The notes under the pieces: model-generated
Database searches by the model: none
What the model was told of the DNA's origin: nothing
The model's input: the letters and a program-made list of their open reading frames with translations, nothing else
Shown: positions 18,102 through 54,242 of the stretch, piece by piece
Position numbering within the stretch: position 1 is the stretch's first letter
Layout of the letters: each line of letters starts with the position of its first letter
Position numbers and translations under genes: made by a program
Source: Candidatus Saccharimonadota bacterium
GTDB lineage: Bacteria > Patescibacteriota > Saccharimonadia > Saccharimonadales > 2-12-FULL-41-12
NCBI GenBank assembly: GCA_022842995.1
Contig: JALHOM010000001.1
Coordinates: forward strand, 77,985-141,984
DNA: 64,000 nt
Direction of reading: 5' to 3'

Positions 18102-18118
18102 ACATCTAGTTTAGCAAT

Positions 18119-18202
18119 AAAGATAAAAGACTAAAGATTAAAGCGGAAAGATGAAAGACCAAAGATTAAAGATTAAAGACAAAAGAGCAAAGATTAAAGA
18201 GA
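18119..18202. repeat. 12 tandem heptamers AAAGNNN
   Basis: aaagata aaagact aaagatt aaagcgg aaagatg aaagacc aaagatt aaagatt aaagaca aaagagc aaagatt aaagaga. An inverted copy, atctttaatcttt, lies at about 18223-18235. Confidence 0.9.
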
Positions 18203-18239
18203 GCTACGGAGCGCTAACTACTATCTTTAATCTTTCGCC

Positions 18240-18259
18240 TGCCCTAGTAAACTAGGGCA
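18240..18259 (-). terminator. hairpin spanning the mutM stop codon
   Basis: TGCCCTAG-taaa-CTAGGGCA with an 8-bp stem. No U-run. Confidence 0.35.
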
Positions 18260-19181
18260 GTTGGCAGTGTGGGCAAACATGAGTTCCCCGCCCGGCTACA
18301 CGTGTTTTTTCGATCACTGCACCGCAACGGGGGCACGGCAATTTTTCCCGGCGAAAAACTCGTGCAAAATCCATGTAACTACCCCTTTTGCCTTCGGCAT
18401 TTACATAATTTCTATCTGTAGAACCGCCTTTTTCTATCGCCAAGTTAAGCACAAACTGCAGCTCACGAAACAACGTTTTTAGCTGAGCGGGCGGAATATC
18501 TTTGACGAGAGTAGTCGGGTGGATTTTTGCGCCCCACAAACTTTCGTCGGCGTAGATATTTCCAACGCCAGCAATGACCGTCTGATCCAAAAGTACAGCC
18601 TTGATGTTGCTGTTTTTACGCCTCATGAGCCTATCTATAAATTGAGTAGCTGTAAAATCTGCATCCAGAGGCTCTGGGCCAACCTTTTTAAAGAAATCGA
18701 GTTCTTCGATAGCAATCGTCGGCATTAACCGCACCCAGCCAAACTTACGAAAATCGTTAAAGTACAGATGAGCACCATTGGCAAACGTGAAGGTTACGCG
18801 CGTACTTTTGTCTGGCAATGAACCAATCAAGGAATCGTTCGGATGCCCTGCACCAAAACGTTCCTCCCCGTCCGTCACATCTTTAATCTTTAAACGTGTG
18901 TCTTTAGTCTTTAATCTTTCGTCTTTCGTCTTCACGTACACCATCTGCCCAGTCATCTTAAGATGAATCACCAGCGAATACTGGGTACTCAAATCAATGA
19001 TCAACACCTTAGCACGACGACGAACGGCCGTAACTTGACTACCAATCAAAAAAGCATCGACATCGGCCTGCGCATTCGGAAAAGACTTCGCCCAATCAAA
19101 ATGCAGGTCTTGGAACGAGAGACCGACGATAAGTTTTCGGAGTCCGATTGCGACTGTTTCTACTTCTGGTAGTTCCGGCAT
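18252..19181 (-). CDS. mutM: formamidopyrimidine-DNA glycosylase
   Basis: The start is set at MPELPEVET because the N-terminal Pro is catalytic. C-terminal zinc finger CPRCGAVIEKTRVAGRGTHVCPHCQ. Contains a repeat-derived insertion. Confidence 0.85.
   Translation of the reverse strand: MPELPEVETVAIGLRKLIVGLSFQDLHFDWAKSFPNAQADVDAFLIGSQVTAVRRRAKVLIIDLSTQYSLVIHLKMTGQMVYVKTKDERLKTKDTRLKIKDVTDGEERFGAGHPNDSLIGSLPDKSTRVTFTFANGAHLYFNDFRKFGWVRLMPTIAIEELDFFKKVGPEPLDADFTATQFIDRLMRRKNSNIKAVLLDQTVIAGVGNIYADESLWGAKIHPTTLVKDIPPAQLKTLFRELQFVLNLAIEKGGSTDRNYVNAEGKRGSYMDFARVFRREKLPCPRCGAVIEKTRVAGRGTHVCPHCQLP
18878..18933 (-). repeat. heptamer array inside the mutM coding sequence
   Basis: Eight 7-nt units of the AAAGNNN family (NNNCTTT on the plus strand). 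They encode VKTKDERLKTKDTRLKIKDV. Confidence 0.8.
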
Positions 19182-20127
19182 CTTCTTGAACCTCCTCGGC
19201 AACATTTAAGCTCGGGAATGCCTGCTTTAATGCTTGCATACTCCGACCGGAGAAATTTCGCTGATTAAGAAAACCACCCCCTGCTACTGATACCCTATAT
19301 ATACCGTCTTCCTGAGGGTCAAGGATTAAATCTGATTGCTGCACATTAGGTGTTACAACTTCAAATACAACTGGCCTGTCGCCGTCATGCCCTGTAATAT
19401 TTATTCCCGACTGTCGTTGAGAATATGAACCATAGTCGGCCAACATTCCAAAACGGTTTAGCGCACCACAAAGCTTTATCTCAGCTAAAAGCTGACTTGT
19501 TTTACGCTCGACTACCGCACATCGTCTTCTGCGAGACATCCATCCAAGTGCCGTGTCAGCCGCAAGCCCACCCGAAAATCTAATTATTTCAATTTTATCT
19601 GGCAACTCGAGGCTATCTATTTCCTTAAACGGAGCGGCCAAAAAACTTGTAAGATAACTTCGGAGTAGCGTATCTGCCGAGTATGAATACCGTCTAGAAT
19701 CCTCAACCAACGACGGATCCCAGGCACTGAATTTTGGATAATGCCCTTTTCTAGATCCAACTGTTTCAGACTCTAGAGAGTTCCGCGTTAATTCGGTAAC
19801 TATCGCCCCCGACACCAAACCAGCTAAATGCATGACTATTTCAGGTTTTTCCCTTACTAGAATTGCAGCACCTTCGCTGTCAAATTGTTCAAATCCGTCC
19901 GGCTTGGCAATCATTTTATCTGGGGACTCTAAAATCTTAAGAATCTCGGGCTTGTCATCGTCTGCAATTACATTCACCAAAGAGGTAAATGCCGGCGATA
20001 TCATCGAACGTATCGTATCTAATGCCGAAGCTGGAGGGACATTACCTAAAGAAACTGCTCCATGAGCCGTATCAGGCCCACAAGTAACCACTAGTTCCGT
20101 TTTAAACGGTTCAATTATTCTTACCAC
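19096..20127 (-). CDS. hypothetical protein
   Basis: 343-aa ORF with a GTG start. The last ~28 codons overlap the mutM 5' end in another frame. No family recognised. Confidence 0.5.
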   Translation of the reverse strand: MVRIIEPFKTELVVTCGPDTAHGAVSLGNVPPASALDTIRSMISPAFTSLVNVIADDDKPEILKILESPDKMIAKPDGFEQFDSEGAAILVREKPEIVMHLAGLVSGAIVTELTRNSLESETVGSRKGHYPKFSAWDPSLVEDSRRYSYSADTLLRSYLTSFLAAPFKEIDSLELPDKIEIIRFSGGLAADTALGWMSRRRRCAVVERKTSQLLAEIKLCGALNRFGMLADYGSYSQRQSGINITGHDGDRPVVFEVVTPNVQQSDLILDPQEDGIYRVSVAGGGFLNQRNFSGRSMQALKQAFPSLNVAEEVQEDAGTTRSRNSRNRTPKTYRRSLVPRPAF

Positions 20128-38340: not shown

Positions 38341-40095
38341 CTACTCTACTCCTCTGCTCAACAACTGATCTAATGCTTTGACCCTTGTTAATAGTGTCTG
38401 TATTTCAGAATCACTAGCGGACTGTAATTGTTCTACGATTTGTTTTTTTTGATCTTTTACATATAACTCGGTATAGCGCGATTTGAGACGTAAGACTTCT
38501 AACTGAAGTTCTAACTGATCGACGTCCGCGTAGAGTTCCTCGAACTGTAATGTTATTATTTTTACATATTCAACGATCTCTTTCAAGTCCTTGGCATCTT
38601 TATGCGAGCCGTCAAAATCTGGATTATTCAGCAAGAACTCAACTAACCGTTGTCTGGCCTCGCCTTCGAACATCTCTGGCATCAAATCAACCATACTACC
38701 CCGCAGGCTTTTGAGGCTAAAGATAAGCGACAACAGCCTGTCGGCAGTTTTATTCAGATCGGCTACATCTCTTTCGGTAGCGACAGGAGCCAACTTGACC
38801 TGTTTTAAGCGTTTCTCGGCCGAATTATTTGAACCAAACATTTGCGAGCGCACACTCTCTGGGTCGGAACCCAGTAATCCAGTCACTTTTGTAACGTAAT
38901 GATCTTGCTCGATCTTGTCGGTCAGACCTTTGATAACCGGCAATACCGCTGCGGCAAACTGTTTTTTACCCAAGACGTCGCTCAGATCAAGATTTTTTTG
39001 ATACGTCGCAATAATCCAATCCACTGCGTAATCGGCTTTAGCAATAACGCGCTTCCAAGCCTCGGGGTCAGACCTCACCAACTCATCAGGGTCTTTGCCG
39101 CTGGGAATCGTCACGACACTCAACTGAACACCGCAAGCAGCAGCAATCGGTATAGCACGCTCGGTGGCAGCTATTCCTGCTCTATCTTCGTCGAAAGCCA
39201 ATCGAACATCCGGCGAAAACCGCCCGAGTAGCTTGAGCTGCATCTGGGTTAAGGCCGTCCCTGCTGTCGCCACAACATTATTTACGCCAGCCTGATGACT
39301 ACTAATAACGTCGAGGTTGCCTTCGGCCAAAACACTGAATTTCTCTTTCTGTATAGCCTTTTTGGCCAGATGGAGTCCATAGACATGCCGAGACTTATCA
39401 TAGAGAGCGGTTGATGGCGTGTTGATGTATTTCGGCGCATCTGGTCGGTCGACAAGTATGCGCGCCGTAAAGCCCACCACCTTGCCAAACTGATCTTGCA
39501 AAGGAATCATGATCCTGCCGCGAAACATATCCTGCAGTCTCCCCGACCGTACGGACGTCAGGCCTGCTGCTTGAATAACTTTTTCATCAAAACCTTTATT
39601 TTTAAGATACGAAAGCAAAACACCACCATGATCAGGGCTGTATCCAATCCGAAAATCTATAACCGTTTTTTTAGTAAAGCCACGCTTCTTCACCACATAG
39701 TCAAAAGCGGTCGCATTGGCGGGTAACTGCGCCTGATAAAACTTCGCAGCAGCTTCTAGCGCGTCATACAAAACATCTTTCGACGGCCCACGAGACTTTC
39801 CAGACTTCGTCTCAAACTGCTCCAGGTCTACCCCGGCCTTACGCGCCAGCAACTCTAAAGTAGCCTTAAAATCCAGACCCTCAACTTCTTGAATAAACGT
39901 AAAGATGTCCCCACCTCGGCCTGAACTAAAATCATGCCAGATCTGTTTTTCGGGGCTCACCACAAAACTCGGCGTCTTTTCGTTACTGAACGGACTCAGG
40001 CCTTTGTAGTTTTTGCCGGCACGCTTAAGATGTACGTACTCCCCAATGACGTCTTCAATATTGATTCGGGCCTTTACCTCTGTAACCGCGTCCAT
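38341..40095 (-). CDS. dnaG: DNA primase
   Basis: The start is set at MDAVTEVKARI. NEKTPSF zinc-ribbon-region signature (ligands missing). TOPRIM motifs LAEGNLDV and AFDEDRAG. Confidence 0.9.
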   Translation of the reverse strand: MDAVTEVKARINIEDVIGEYVHLKRAGKNYKGLSPFSNEKTPSFVVSPEKQIWHDFSSGRGGDIFTFIQEVEGLDFKATLELLARKAGVDLEQFETKSGKSRGPSKDVLYDALEAAAKFYQAQLPANATAFDYVVKKRGFTKKTVIDFRIGYSPDHGGVLLSYLKNKGFDEKVIQAAGLTSVRSGRLQDMFRGRIMIPLQDQFGKVVGFTARILVDRPDAPKYINTPSTALYDKSRHVYGLHLAKKAIQKEKFSVLAEGNLDVISSHQAGVNNVVATAGTALTQMQLKLLGRFSPDVRLAFDEDRAGIAATERAIPIAAACGVQLSVVTIPSGKDPDELVRSDPEAWKRVIAKADYAVDWIIATYQKNLDLSDVLGKKQFAAAVLPVIKGLTDKIEQDHYVTKVTGLLGSDPESVRSQMFGSNNSAEKRLKQVKLAPVATERDVADLNKTADRLLSLIFSLKSLRGSMVDLMPEMFEGEARQRLVEFLLNNPDFDGSHKDAKDLKEIVEYVKIITLQFEELYADVDQLELQLEVLRLKSRYTELYVKDQKKQIVEQLQSASDSEIQTLLTRVKALDQLLSRGVE

Positions 40096-40220
40096 ACCCA
40101 TCAGTTTAAAGATAAAAGAAGAAAGTTGAAAGCAAAAGACAGCAACCAAAGAGCCTTTCTCGCGGTAATATCAAGATACCTTGTTCGAAAAAGCAATTGA
40201 AATCAGATACAATAGTGCTT

Positions 40221-40835
40221 ATGCAACCAAACGGCACAGCCCCACTACCCCCTGACCACGATCCATTTGCCTTTATTACACAAGACAACCCTGTACCCAA
40301 GAAAACACTGGTCAACCCTTCTAGCATGAAGGCGCAGATTGCTATAATTGTCGGCTTTGTCATCTTACTCATAATTGGCGCGATTATTACCGTCAGCTTG
40401 CTCGGTGGTGGAGACAAAGATAGAACCCAAAGTTACATCGAGATCTCGCAACGCCAAACCGAAATCATCCGCATTAGTGCCCTTGCCAGCGAAAAAGCCA
40501 AAAGTCTTGAGACAAAATCACTCGCCTACACCACCAACCTGGCTGTTTCGTCTTCGCAAAAAGAGCTAACGACCATTCTCGTAAAGCGCGGCGTTACCGA
40601 AAAAGCCCTTGCCAAAGAGCTTGGCGCTCTCAAAAATAGCAAAAGCGACGAACTACTCGCCGAGGCCGAACGCAACAACCGCTACGACGAAACTTTCAAA
40701 GAAATATTAAACACCGAACTCACTAACTACCAAAAACAACTCAACGCCGTATCTGGTGGGGCTAAAAAATCGGAGTTCGCCGTCCTCGAAAAGTCCTTCA
40801 ACCAGATCTCGGTCATCCAAAAATCAGATAAATAG
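40221..40835 (+). CDS. hypothetical single-pass membrane protein
   Basis: The start is moved to MQPNGT. TM helix IAIIVGFVILLIIGAIITVSLL. Confidence 0.5.
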   Translation: MQPNGTAPLPPDHDPFAFITQDNPVPKKTLVNPSSMKAQIAIIVGFVILLIIGAIITVSLLGGGDKDRTQSYIEISQRQTEIIRISALASEKAKSLETKSLAYTTNLAVSSSQKELTTILVKRGVTEKALAKELGALKNSKSDELLAEAERNNRYDETFKEILNTELTNYQKQLNAVSGGAKKSEFAVLEKSFNQISVIQKSDK

Positions 40836-40846
40836 ATGCTAGCTCT

Positions 40847-41007
40847 GAGTTATGAGTTAAGAGTTATGAGTTAAGATTCGCCTTACGGCGAAAGGGGAAT
40901 GGGAGCTCGTAGCTAGCCGCTAGTAGCTAGGGGCTAGGAGCTACTCTTGTCTCTTGACTCATACCTCTTAACTCTAATTTAGAAATTTGAAATTTGAAAT
41001 TGGCATT
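40847..41007. repeat. 23 phase-locked heptamers with a drifting motif
   Basis: Reads gagttat gagttaa gagttat gagttaa ... tagctag ccgctag tagctag gggctag gagctac tcttgtc tcttgac tcatacc tcttaac tctaatt tagaaat ttgaaat ttgaaat. The left and right thirds are mutually reverse-complementary. Confidence 0.85.
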
Positions 41008-41058
41008 AACCCAAAAATCGCTATTACCAACCACAACCGAATAAAACATACTCAGCGA

Positions 41059-41086
41059 GTTTCTAGTTTCTAGTTTCTAGTTTCCG
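41059..41086. repeat. (GTTTCTA)x4 heptamer array overlapping the yjbR-like stop
   Basis: gtttcta gtttcta gtttcta gtttccg. The stop codon at 41077-41079 lies inside unit 3. Confidence 0.85.
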
Positions 41087-41397
41087 GTTACCAAATTATA
41101 GCTGTGCACTATAAAACCCTGCACTTCTTCCCAGGGGAGCTGCCCGGTCAAAATAAGCGTGTTCCAGTGCTTTTTGTTCAGATGATAACCCGGCATGACC
41201 GTCTCGTACTTTTCTCGTAATACTATTGCAAGCTGAGGGTCGCATTTTAGACTTAGCCGCACCGGATCAGATTTCTCGGCTATGAGCGCAAACATTTTGT
41301 CGCCAACTTTATATACCGCGACTTCTTCTCCGAAAGGATATTCAAGCCTGGCATTAGGCATCTCGAGCAGATATTGTTCGACAGTTTTGTGGTCCAT
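41077..41397 (-). CDS. MmcQ/YjbR-family protein
   Basis: 106 aa. The pattern YPFGEEVAVYKVGDKMFALI...LKCDP...PGYHLNKKHWNTLIL is typical of YjbR. Confidence 0.6.
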   Translation of the reverse strand: MDHKTVEQYLLEMPNARLEYPFGEEVAVYKVGDKMFALIAEKSDPVRLSLKCDPQLAIVLREKYETVMPGYHLNKKHWNTLILTGQLPWEEVQGFIVHSYNLVTGN

Positions 41398-41411
41398 TTA
41401 TACTTTAGTTT

Positions 41412-41439
41412 AAAGATAAAAGACTAAAGAGAAAAGAGC
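41412..41439. repeat. four AAAGNNN heptamers immediately upstream of the yjbR-like start
   Basis: aaagata aaagact aaagaga aaagagc. The first two units are the same as in the 18119 array. Confidence 0.85.
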
Positions 41440-50491: not shown

Positions 50492-50499
50492 ACCTTCCC

Positions 50500-50530
50500 T
50501 AATTTCAATTTTCTAATTTCTAATTTCTAA
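50500..50530. repeat. (TAATTTC)n heptamer array directly after a stop codon
   Basis: taatttc aattttc taatttc taatttc taa. Confidence 0.85.
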
Positions 50531-50532
50531 GT

Positions 50533-50988
50533 CTACATTCCCTCGTCGCCAGTAGCTGGCAAAGCTGTGGCTGGTGTCGTAGTCGTCGATGCGTCACCAG
50601 TGCTCGGTGTCGATACTGGAGCTGGAGTAGTAGCAGACGTTGATGGAGTTGACGCAGCAGGAGAGCTACTTTGGCTCGAAGAGTTTGTAGAGTCGGTGGA
50701 TGTTGTAGGCGTCGAGCCTTGGTTGTCTGAGGCTTTGGTGTCTTCGTTCTTCTTGGATGATTCCGTGATAGTCTCTACTTTTTTGGGCTCGTTGTTATCT
50801 GAAAGACGGTTGTAGAGTGCCCGACCACCAAAGAACAGGCCGAGTCCAATAAGCAACGTAACAATAAGAGCAACAATGCCTAAAATAACCGCCACACCAG
50901 CTCGTTCACGGCGCTGTGACTGATAATACTGATTTACTTCCTCTGGAAGTACACTATTACTTTTGTTGGATCGTTTGAACAAAGCCAC
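50533..50988 (-). CDS. membrane-anchored Ser/Thr/Pro-rich protein
   Basis: TM helix AGVAVILGIVALIVTLLIGLGLFFG followed by an S/T/P-rich tail. Confidence 0.5.
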   Translation of the reverse strand: MALFKRSNKSNSVLPEEVNQYYQSQRRERAGVAVILGIVALIVTLLIGLGLFFGGRALYNRLSDNNEPKKVETITESSKKNEDTKASDNQGSTPTTSTDSTNSSSQSSSPAASTPSTSATTPAPVSTPSTGDASTTTTPATALPATGDEGM

Positions 50989-54193: not shown

Positions 54194-54242
54194 ATAACTC
54201 ATAACTGATAACTGATAACTGATAACTGATAACTGATAACAC
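54194..54242. repeat. seven tandem heptamers (ATAACTG on plus, CAGTTAT on the mRNA strand) in the groES-groEL spacer
   Basis: ataactc ataactg x5 ataacac. The array starts at the base after the groES stop codon. Confidence 0.9.

Follow-up and report, generated by a model that had tools for sequence, protein, structure and literature searches.

A compound heptanucleotide repeat tract between two convergent genes of a Candidatus Saccharimonadota bacterium

How an intergenic tract can keep a 7-nt rhythm while its repeated motif changes from one block to the next is the question raised by a short spacer in the genome of a Candidatus Saccharimonadota bacterium (GenBank assembly GCA_022842995.1, contig JALHOM010000001.1). 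The window analyzed here is a 64,000-nt (64 kb) stretch of that contig, and all positions are those of the window unless a relative's locus is named. The spacer (40836-41076, 241 nt) lies between two convergent genes, a + strand gene for a 212 aa protein with its stop codon at 40833-40835 and a - strand gene for a YjbR-domain protein, yjbR, with its stop codon at 41077-41079, and it consists mostly of tandem 7-nt repeats. An initial annotation had proposed that a strict phase is held across five motif types, to a degree that simple slippage does not obviously explain, and that the tract is also a long imperfect hairpin. The tract is a member of the long simple sequence repeats with 7-nt units, as are the cyanobacterial STRR, the Xanthomonas GGGAATC and the Beggiatoaceae TAACTGA repeats, and it is probably a compound heptanucleotide repeat which grew by slippage, by substitution and by one inverted duplication. 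No new mechanism is revealed by it, and it has the look of filler specific to the lineage, not of a device that has been conserved.

In many prokaryotes no class of long simple sequence repeat is more abundant than heptamers, according to the summary of Mrazek 2007 given in PMC4679880, which also relays the proposal that the number seven is explained by the ~7-nt DNA contact of the replicative polymerase. In the same summary (Mrazek, Guo and Shah 2007, via PMC4679880) long simple sequence repeats have units of 5-11 nt and, like the present tract, are mainly non-coding and sporadic across phylogeny. Full-text literature searches returned nothing on such heptamer repeats in Saccharibacteria or other bacteria from the CPR group (candidate phyla radiation), and heptamer intergenic repeats are apparently previously unreported in the Saccharibacteria phylum. 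The 2007 survey is said to predate CPR genomes and reportedly describes no compound, phase-retaining or palindromic tracts. The tract extends a poorly understood, functionally unexplained class of heptanucleotide repeats to Candidatus Saccharibacteria, in whose ~1-Mb, 92%-coding genomes neighboring genes usually abut, so that the creation of spacer DNA by repeats is unusually clear to see.

Repeat blocks and their register

Arrays were called with Tandem Repeats Finder (TRF), which reports five period-7 arrays in the spacer, at 40846-40876, 40902-40943, 40943-40975, 40976-41001 and 41058-41084. Periodicity was scored as lag-7 identity against shuffled sequence: the whole spacer has 137 lag-7 matches out of 234 (60.1 +/- 6.6 when shuffled) and the tract has 102 out of 154 (39.8 +/- 5.4), every lag except 7 giving an identity of about 0.25 in the tract. 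Head-to-tail 7-nt units, in at least three copies, are present in the spacer above chance.

Read from the 212-aa gene, the repeats open with a lead-in (40829-40846, + strand) formed by the stop-codon heptamer of that gene, taaaTAG, followed by atgcTAG and ctct(GAG), and these heptamers share the register of the first array. This array, B1 (40847-40874, + strand), reads gagttat gagttaa gagttat gagttaa as the initial annotation described it, and the units of the other blocks likewise read in its register. B1 has a 14-nt higher-order unit, TRF scoring it at 4.0 copies and 90% for period 7 and at 100% for period 14, with a lag-7 identity of 0.86; it is identical in an independent assembly (L163). 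The next four units, segment U (40875-40902, + strand; gattcgc cttacgg cgaaagg ggaatgg), had been called non-repetitive, but these 28 nt are decayed heptamers which retain period 7 (12 of 21 lag-7 matches, p 0.0012). They also contain a small hairpin, ttcgcc-ttac-ggcgaa (40877-40892), which is present in the folds. Block B2 (40903-40944, + strand) is built of six NNgctaN units, gagctcg tagctag ccgctag tagctag gggctag gagctac, in which the proposed five NNgctag copies resolve into four exact copies and two variants. B2 is self-complementary, as had been suggested for its gctag center, and holds an internal palindrome with arms at 40913-40923 and 40927-40937.

The third block, B3 (40945-40975, - strand), is an inverted array of the B1 type; it reads tcttgtc tcttgac tcatacc tcttaac on the + strand, three exact copies and one variant of tcttNNc where four copies had been counted, and gagttaa gaggtat gagtcaa gagacaa in reverse complement. 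Similarly, B4 (40973-41001, + strand; tctaatt tagaaat ttgaaat ttgaaat) has two exact copies and one variant of ttgaaat where three had been given, and its motif family is that of another array in the window (50499-50530), blastn aligning it in inverted orientation to 50501-50526 at 88% over 26 nt. The gap after B4, segment G (41001-41056, + strand), measures 56 nt rather than the 50 nt first reported and is non-repetitive (17 of 49 lag-7 matches, p 0.30). The last block, B5 (41057-41084, - strand; 3.9 copies and 100% by TRF), reads gagtttc tagtttc tagtttc tagtttc on the + strand and (aaactag)x3 followed by aaactcg on the yjbR strand. Its first unit consists of the last four coding bases of yjbR and the TAG stop, and the gtttcta array, noted early on as overlapping the end of yjbR, supplies the stop codon itself. 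B5 is identical in the loci L001 and L002.

A block with period 7 has no fixed register of its own, so that a common phase is testable only between blocks with similar units. For B1 against B2 the observed register gives 0.57 and the other six at most 0.29, and for B1 against B5 it gives 0.61 and the other six at most 0.36, each the best of seven; for B1, B2 and B5 jointly the observed register ranks 1 of 49. Across all five repeat blocks the rank is 36 of 2401, and across all seven segments it is 12091 of 117649. Compared with B1, B2 and B5, the register of B3 and B4 ranks 4 of 7 in most comparisons, and that of B3 against B4 ranks 2 of 7; as these two blocks resemble the others only as reverse complements (91% and 74%), their "phase" is a chosen motif rotation. 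A strict phase over five motifs is thus overstated, holding for B1, B2 and B5 and being unremarkable, indeed undefined, for B3 and B4.

Ordinary repeat dynamics account for the phase. B1, U and B2 are a single array diversified in place, the decayed heptamers of U separating two blocks that are in register, and register is retained because whole-unit slippage and base substitution keep it automatically. The agreement of B5 is a 1-in-7 event and is not conserved, since G is 2 nt shorter in L002, a contig from an activated-carbon metagenome. The argument that phase retention goes beyond slippage could therefore not be upheld, a demonstrable common register being limited to three blocks with related units. 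Other compound tracts behave alike, with a phase slip now and then: L146 4915-5040 has two related blocks which agree in phase although 21 unrelated bases separate them, and a further block that is shifted.

The course of events that we favor would start from two convergent genes that abut. Replication slippage, adding and removing whole 7-nt units, would have created new spacer DNA, beginning on the yjbR side with a heptamer that contains the stop codon; on the 212-aa side, we infer, the array was likewise seeded from the stop-codon heptamer. The duplication of a stop heptamer leaves the protein unchanged. Substitutions would then have altered single units and renewed slippage would have amplified the variants, giving rise to 14-nt higher-order units and to the drift of the motif, while register would have been kept without selection for phase. 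One inverted duplication, probably by strand or template switch, would have carried ~23 nt or more of the gagttaW array across the gctag block and thereby produced a 139-nt stem-loop. The preference for seven would be a property of the mutational process of the lineage.

Orthologous spacers and period seven in the lineage

The sample of relatives comprises 160 loci and 1.7 Mb of DNA, including 121 kb of non-coding DNA. The convergent pair of yjbR and the 212-aa gene beside dnaG is conserved in 96 loci, among which the median spacer is ~1 nt; the genes touch or overlap in 44 of the 96, the spacer is at most 19 nt in 64 of the 96, and the 241 nt of the window are an outlier. Among orthologous spacers of 80-155 nt, four have high lag-7 identity (L146 0.71, L120 0.46, L118 0.44 and L127 0.43) with motifs unrelated to those of the window, and three of the four build arrays with inverted copies. 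Because spacers are short in most relatives and the heptamer spacers use other motifs, the tract is lineage-specific DNA and not a conserved element, and several lineages have expanded the yjbR spacer independently with other heptamers. From sequence comparison, the evidence says that the tract is probably dispensable, lineage-specific and not conserved. Two further yjbR spacers (L034:4541-4671 and L138:2865-3004) share a ~130-nt non-heptamer element (gggaaaag.gcag...gatgag.aaaacc...) which has no Rfam match.

Exact-protein look-ups returned one different strain, L002, and two window-identical contigs; 90% clusters of both flanking proteins contained the window's own sequence alone, and a metagenome scan returned only relatives at no more than 85% YjbR identity. 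In L002 there is 1 mismatch in ~724 nt of flank, which includes yjbR, its upstream array and B5; from G onward the contig is ~80% identical and then unalignable, with other heptamer motifs. This single other strain has one extra aatttcW unit (+7 nt), different B3 units and the shortened G, a difference which could be due to fast in-situ change or to a recombined divergent allele. Arrays that are absent or unphased in close relatives had been named in advance as an indication of neutral slippage products. By that measure the tract behaves as a product that is not conserved: the spacer is essentially missing in most relatives, the tract differs in L002 and one block distance there is off by 2 nt. 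Two Logan contigs from one sample (SRR28154522) are 100% identical to the window and break off within the tract, one at 40962 and the other at 41052. In these genomes heptamer tracts seem to act as points where assemblies break; they interrupt short-read assemblies and could serve as strain markers.

A tract that differs between strains is also what would be seen at a contingency locus, in which a change of copy number switches the expression of a neighboring gene (phase variation), in the way heptanucleotide repeats are described in PMC8262952 to control hmw1A/hmw2A in Haemophilus. This explanation is hardly credible here, as the tract lies downstream of both genes and its copy number cannot alter promoter spacing or reading frame. 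Moreover, both strains have the same sequence in the two arrays that lie closest to yjbR, and the array-associated genes are apparently housekeeping genes (dnaG, the YjbR domain gene, ORFs, that is open reading frames, read as groES/groEL, holA and mutM).

Period 7 is not confined to this spacer. In the intergenic DNA of the window, lag 7 has a z of 4.7 and is the sole lag above 4 outside lag 1 and multiples of 3 (lag 14, z 3.8), the signal being concentrated in few spacers; in the non-coding DNA of the relatives, lag 7 has a z of 6.6 and lag 14 a z of 4.5, with only lag 11 otherwise raised (z 3.7). An intergenic period-7 signal stronger than in shuffled controls, on which the first description of the tract had been made to depend, is therefore found in both. 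Period 7 is also the commonest tandem-repeat period in the relatives' DNA, accounting for 46 of 110 arrays of at least three copies and for 23 of 32 in another count. In a census of the window and the relatives' loci, 41 of 62 arrays fall in the non-coding 7.6% of the DNA, an enrichment of ~25-fold. The motifs change from genome to genome, and array density is alike in divergent, convergent and tandem spacers. A preference of the relatives' arrays for positions near stop codons was considered and not retained, the picture being mixed (between tandem pairs, 5 nearer the stop and 3 nearer the start). An inverted partner, defined as a reverse-complement 14-mer with at most 2 mismatches within 200 nt, accompanies 11 of the 62 arrays, and the controls gave 0 (reverse), 1 (complement) and 3 (direct).

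A stem-loop between two stop codons

The left and right blocks of the tract had been described as reverse complements of each other, and they are: two arms of 23 nt, one at 40854-40876 and the other at 40952-40974, show 91% complementarity. The inverted arm preserves the a/t alternation of the 14-nt unit, by which a copy event is indicated. Together they close a branched stem-loop (40844-40982, 139 nt, either strand) in which a B1:B3 stem surrounds the U and B2 hairpins, with a minimum free energy of -71.7 kcal/mol and a z of -7.07 (40830-40990), 0 of 200 shuffles being as good. The whole spacer folds with a z of -6.3 on the + strand and -5.7 on the - strand, so that a long imperfect hairpin is a fair description of the tract. 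The stem-loop begins 9 nt past the stop codon of the 212-aa gene; both convergent transcripts would fold into it, and it may hinder read-through or decay from the 3' end.

A 3' stem-loop role for the tract is possible on this evidence. It would be the primary one if the structure were a selected RNA stem-loop, acting in a REP-like manner as a bidirectional transcription barrier and/or as a 3'-end stabilizer for both mRNAs, with the arrays as raw material; this we consider unlikely, although several observations speak for it. Apart from the strength of the fold on both strands and its position just past a stop codon, complementary arms made of tandem repeats remain paired after unit slippage in either arm, and several expanded orthologous spacers have strong folds whether or not they contain heptamers (L118 z -7.9, L095 -6.3, L132 -4.3, L120 -3.9). 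The enrichment of inverted array pairs (11 of 62) points the same way, as do the several arrays of the window that begin 0-11 nt past a stop codon and the Xanthomonas heptamer repeats that likewise lie just downstream of ORFs (PMC4692102). However, neither arm is followed by a U-tract, and a scan of both strands of 40836-41076 found no terminator-like site and no T-run. Most relatives have no spacer at this site, which means that a terminator is not needed there. Inverted pairs are also found between divergent promoters, a setting in which termination would be senseless (L125 4340-4540, -81.7 kcal/mol; L118 2963-3079; L076), while the other convergent spacers of the window are mostly hairpin-free, and the array after the ORF read as groES sits inside an apparent operon with no inverted partner. 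The pairing of B4 with B5 (74% complementarity) is not significant on the yjbR strand, because G-U pairs are available on the + strand only.

Three more specific candidates were rejected. A separate B5/B4 3' hairpin for yjbR, alongside B1/B3 for the 212-aa gene, folds no better than shuffles on the yjbR strand (z -1.5). An intrinsic (Rho-independent) terminator does not fit a stem of 139 nt that lacks a T-run and is A/T-rich rather than short and G+C-rich. A structured RNA gene is not suggested by Rfam 15, which gives no match in the window at the gathering threshold, its sole match below that threshold being to the precursor of a plant miRNA, with 21.9 bits where 72 are required and an E of 0.097, nor by the other strain, where the sequence is not conserved.

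The REP (repetitive extragenic palindromic) and BIME (bacterial interspersed mosaic element) sequences of enterobacteria are imperfect palindromes located after stop codons which can stabilize the upstream mRNA and impede transcription. REPs have a conserved 20-40-nt sequence, occur in hundreds of copies and are tied to RAYT transposases. The likeness of the tract to them is a functional analogy only, as the spacer module has neither a conserved sequence nor a second copy. This bears equally on the notion that the palindrome of 139 nt came in between the genes as a small, non-autonomous mobile element, either a MITE (miniature inverted-repeat transposable element) or REPIN-like, with heptamer arrays as its terminal inverted repeats. 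Inverted termini around an internal GC-rich hairpin would suit such an element, and a similar architecture is present at L125 4340-4540; small hairpin elements nested in Nostoc heptamer arrays were reportedly described by Elhai in 2008. Nevertheless, neither the internal hairpin TTCGCCTTACGGCGAA nor the whole module has a second copy in the window or in the 1.7 Mb of relatives' DNA, where recurrence is limited to the array motifs; the termini are different at each locus, and no target-site duplication is visible. A dispersed element of the REP, REPIN or MITE type was therefore provisionally rejected on the single-copy status of hairpin and module in the window and related loci, and a mobile origin of the module seems highly improbable.

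The tract has most of its features in common with the heptamers of Xanthomonas (GGGAATC) and Nostoc PCC 7120 (GGGGAYT), which are described in PMC4692102 (Rehm et al. 2015). The Xanthomonas repeats are 89-93% intergenic, lie at a mean of 28 nt from the upstream ORF, make up 70-75 convergent inverted pairs in each genome and are variable even among closely related species, their function being unknown (PMC4692102). Like them, the arrays described here have heterogeneous 7-nt units in ~4 copies, are found near an upstream stop codon, frequently occur as inverted pairs able to form stem-loops and show strong variation of length and sequence among close relatives, ~90% of the known repeats being intergenic. 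Inverted pairing of this type is present in the tract (B1/B3, 91%) and among the 62 arrays, 11 against 0-3 in the controls. The Xanthomonas and Nostoc units are rich in G and fold into G-quadruplexes, and in each genome a single motif dominates. In contrast, the units of the window are A/T-rich and stop-codon-rich, several families share one spacer and the host is a CPR bacterium with a reduced genome; gagttaW, NNgctag, tcttNNc, ttgaaat and gtttcta have no G-tracts, as a G-quadruplex would call for.

The reading of the tract as a repeat grown by slippage, with inverted partner arrays as what would be a recurrent by-product, has several points to face. A strong fold (z ~-7) at the 3' end of both genes also fits a selected terminator or stabilizer, and the enrichment of inverted pairs could mean selection for pairing instead of a mutational by-product. 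A stop triplet (cyclic, on at least one strand) is contained in 38 of 42 non-coding heptamer units from the window and the 160 loci compared to 58% of background 7-mers (p 4e-6), which pure slippage does not predict; stop-codon seeding, selection or ORF-calling bias could each contribute to the excess. The two short arrays beside yjbR are identical in both strains, which argues against hypermutable arrays over such a span of time, and what diverges in L002 may stem from a recombined allele and not from in-situ change. Slippage, the direction taken by the inverted duplication and the cause of the number seven are reconstructions and not observations. As a separate observation, 18 of the 42 non-coding array units carry stop triplets on both strands, compared to 18% of the background (p 1e-4), and since 7 and 3 are coprime, stop-bearing arrays close all three frames within 21 nt.

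A wider version of the repeat-growth reading can be formulated, in which a process common to the whole Saccharimonadales lineage builds new intergenic sequence out of 7-nt units. It would start at gene ends and frequently yield fold-back (inverted) array pairs, and part of its output would be recruited into 3' stem-loops or into leaders that lack a Shine-Dalgarno sequence. This version is speculative, and we doubt it. If true, regulatory hairpins would be seen to arise de novo out of simple repeats in minimal genomes, and a genetically tractable CPR bacterium would allow the basis of seven, be it the footprint of the polymerase or a dedicated binding protein, to be put to the test.

Other arrays of the window and the neighboring genes

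Related heptamer arrays had been reported at five other loci of the window, and all five were recovered (18118-18200, 18879-18932, 41411-41438, 50499-50530 and 54194-54240); seven heptamer tracts were counted in the 64 kb. By blastn, their motif families are common to the loci of this window and are not shared with other genomes.

The pattern of families shared within one genome would be expected if the arrays were reiterated sites for a nucleic-acid-binding protein, whether post-transcriptional and TAACTGA-like or of the S1/Csp type, with the period as its footprint. Such a role has been proposed for TAACTGA repeats (PMC4679880), which are direct repeats known from marine Beggiatoaceae, some cyanobacteria and Bacteroidetes (MacGregor 2015, PMC4679880). 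In addition, CTTT-type arrays end in the same 16-19 nt upstream of the starts of dnaG, yjbR and holA, which have no obvious Shine-Dalgarno sequence, and arrays occur upstream of dnaG in at least eight relatives. The tract itself, however, sits between two stop codons and not before a start, it combines five motifs in 240 nt in both orientations, the motifs differ completely among related genomes, and no candidate protein was identified; we regard the explanation as very improbable for the tract.

The comparison with the TAACTGA system can be made directly. The array at 54194-54240 (- strand) is (cagttat)x5 gagttat gagctga, that is (TAACTGA)n on the + strand, and is the only array with the exact Beggiatoaceae unit. 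The B1 unit, TGAGTTA, is one mismatch from TCAGTTA, the complement of TAACTGA. The Beggiatoaceae repeats stand in sense orientation a few bases before start codons and are dominated by one motif, in contrast to the five motifs between two stops seen here, and the tract has neither the TAACTGA unit nor a position before a start codon. Mixed heptamers in one spacer have been reported for Microcystis, Gramella and Elizabethkingia (PMC4679880). The 54194-54240 array begins directly after the stop codon of a 97-aa ORF, fills the spacer and lies 45 nt upstream of a 546-aa ORF; the two ORFs are putatively read as groES and groEL from their size and adjacency. The array is similar to B1 by blastn, and its drift from cagttat to gagttat to gagcta mirrors the drift in the spacer. 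In Xanthomonas, groES has been marked as a repeat-associated gene (Rehm et al., PMC4692102).

Tandem intergenic heptamers in several families also characterize the short tandemly repeated repetitive (STRR) sequences of cyanobacteria, a different phylum. Mazel et al. in 1990 are said to have described STRR as tandem intergenic heptanucleotides with several motif families per genome and unknown function. The STRR motifs CCCCAGT, TTGGTCA and CAACAGT of heterocystous cyanobacteria are missing from the TRF array list of the window.

Three sites in the window have a common 3' end. The array at 41411-41438 (- strand; ctctttt/gtctttt/atcttta) ends 13 nt upstream of the yjbR ATG, and that at 18118-18200 (- strand; atcttta-type x12 with a 28-nt higher-order unit) lies between the mutM stop and the holA start, with a short inverted partner at 18224-18236. 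A 16-mer, CTTTTATCTTTAAACT, is identical 8 nt upstream of the dnaG ATG (40095) and 9 nt upstream of the yjbR ATG, and a 19-mer, CTTTAGTCTTTTATCTTTA, is identical upstream of yjbR and holA. The shared leader sites (40103-40118, 41407-41422 and 18118-18136) are each the 3' end of a CTTT-type heptamer array. As mentioned, dnaG, yjbR and holA have no obvious Shine-Dalgarno sequence; the ORF read as groEL has AGGAG. From their sequence identity, the CTTT-type array ends may be a shared leader or promoter element.

The array at 50499-50530 (- strand), (aaattag)n, starts 2 nt past the stop codon of the gene 50533-50988, and the bases beyond it resemble, judged by eye, a terminator with a hairpin and a T-run. 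The remaining array, 18879-18932 (- strand), is coding: it lies in frame within an ORF read as mutM/fpg (18252-19205, - strand), named from its PELPEVE N-terminus, and encodes the insert VKTKDERLKTKDTRLKIKDVT. This insert of 18-19 aa is positioned in the loop between HLKMTGQ.VY and ERFGAGHP and is lacking in six orthologues. In L040 that mutM loop contains an insert of its own, independent of this one and encoded by a different heptamer array, (TGGAAGA)4.4 (L040:13899-13929).

Of the genes that flank the spacer, the left one (212 aa, + strand) extends from 40197 or 40221 to 40835 and has no Pfam domain match, and the right one, yjbR (41077-41397, - strand), matches PF04237 with an E of 1e-28. 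The gene dnaG is located just upstream of this pair, and its best genome matches at the DnaG level are all Candidatus Saccharibacteria or Saccharimonadales metagenome-assembled genomes (MAGs) at no more than 65% identity. The arrays upstream of dnaG in at least eight relatives (L004, L010, L011, L017, L018, L046, L066 and L076) are heptamer or 21-mer arrays ~0-190 nt from the gene, several of them directly before the ATG, with motifs that are all different (AACCTAT, GCTATAA, CTTGCTA, TACCCTA and others); of all the non-coding arrays counted in the dnaG loci, a large part falls in this one upstream spacer. In the window, the mechanical call of the dnaG ORF (38341-40149) uses a TTG start at 40149. 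The alignment with the DnaG proteins of relatives begins only at residue 19, and MDAVTEVK, the conserved N-terminus, begins at the ATG 40095, which is probably the true start. With dnaG starting at 40095, the divergent spacer between dnaG and the 212-aa gene is ~100-125 nt, not 47.

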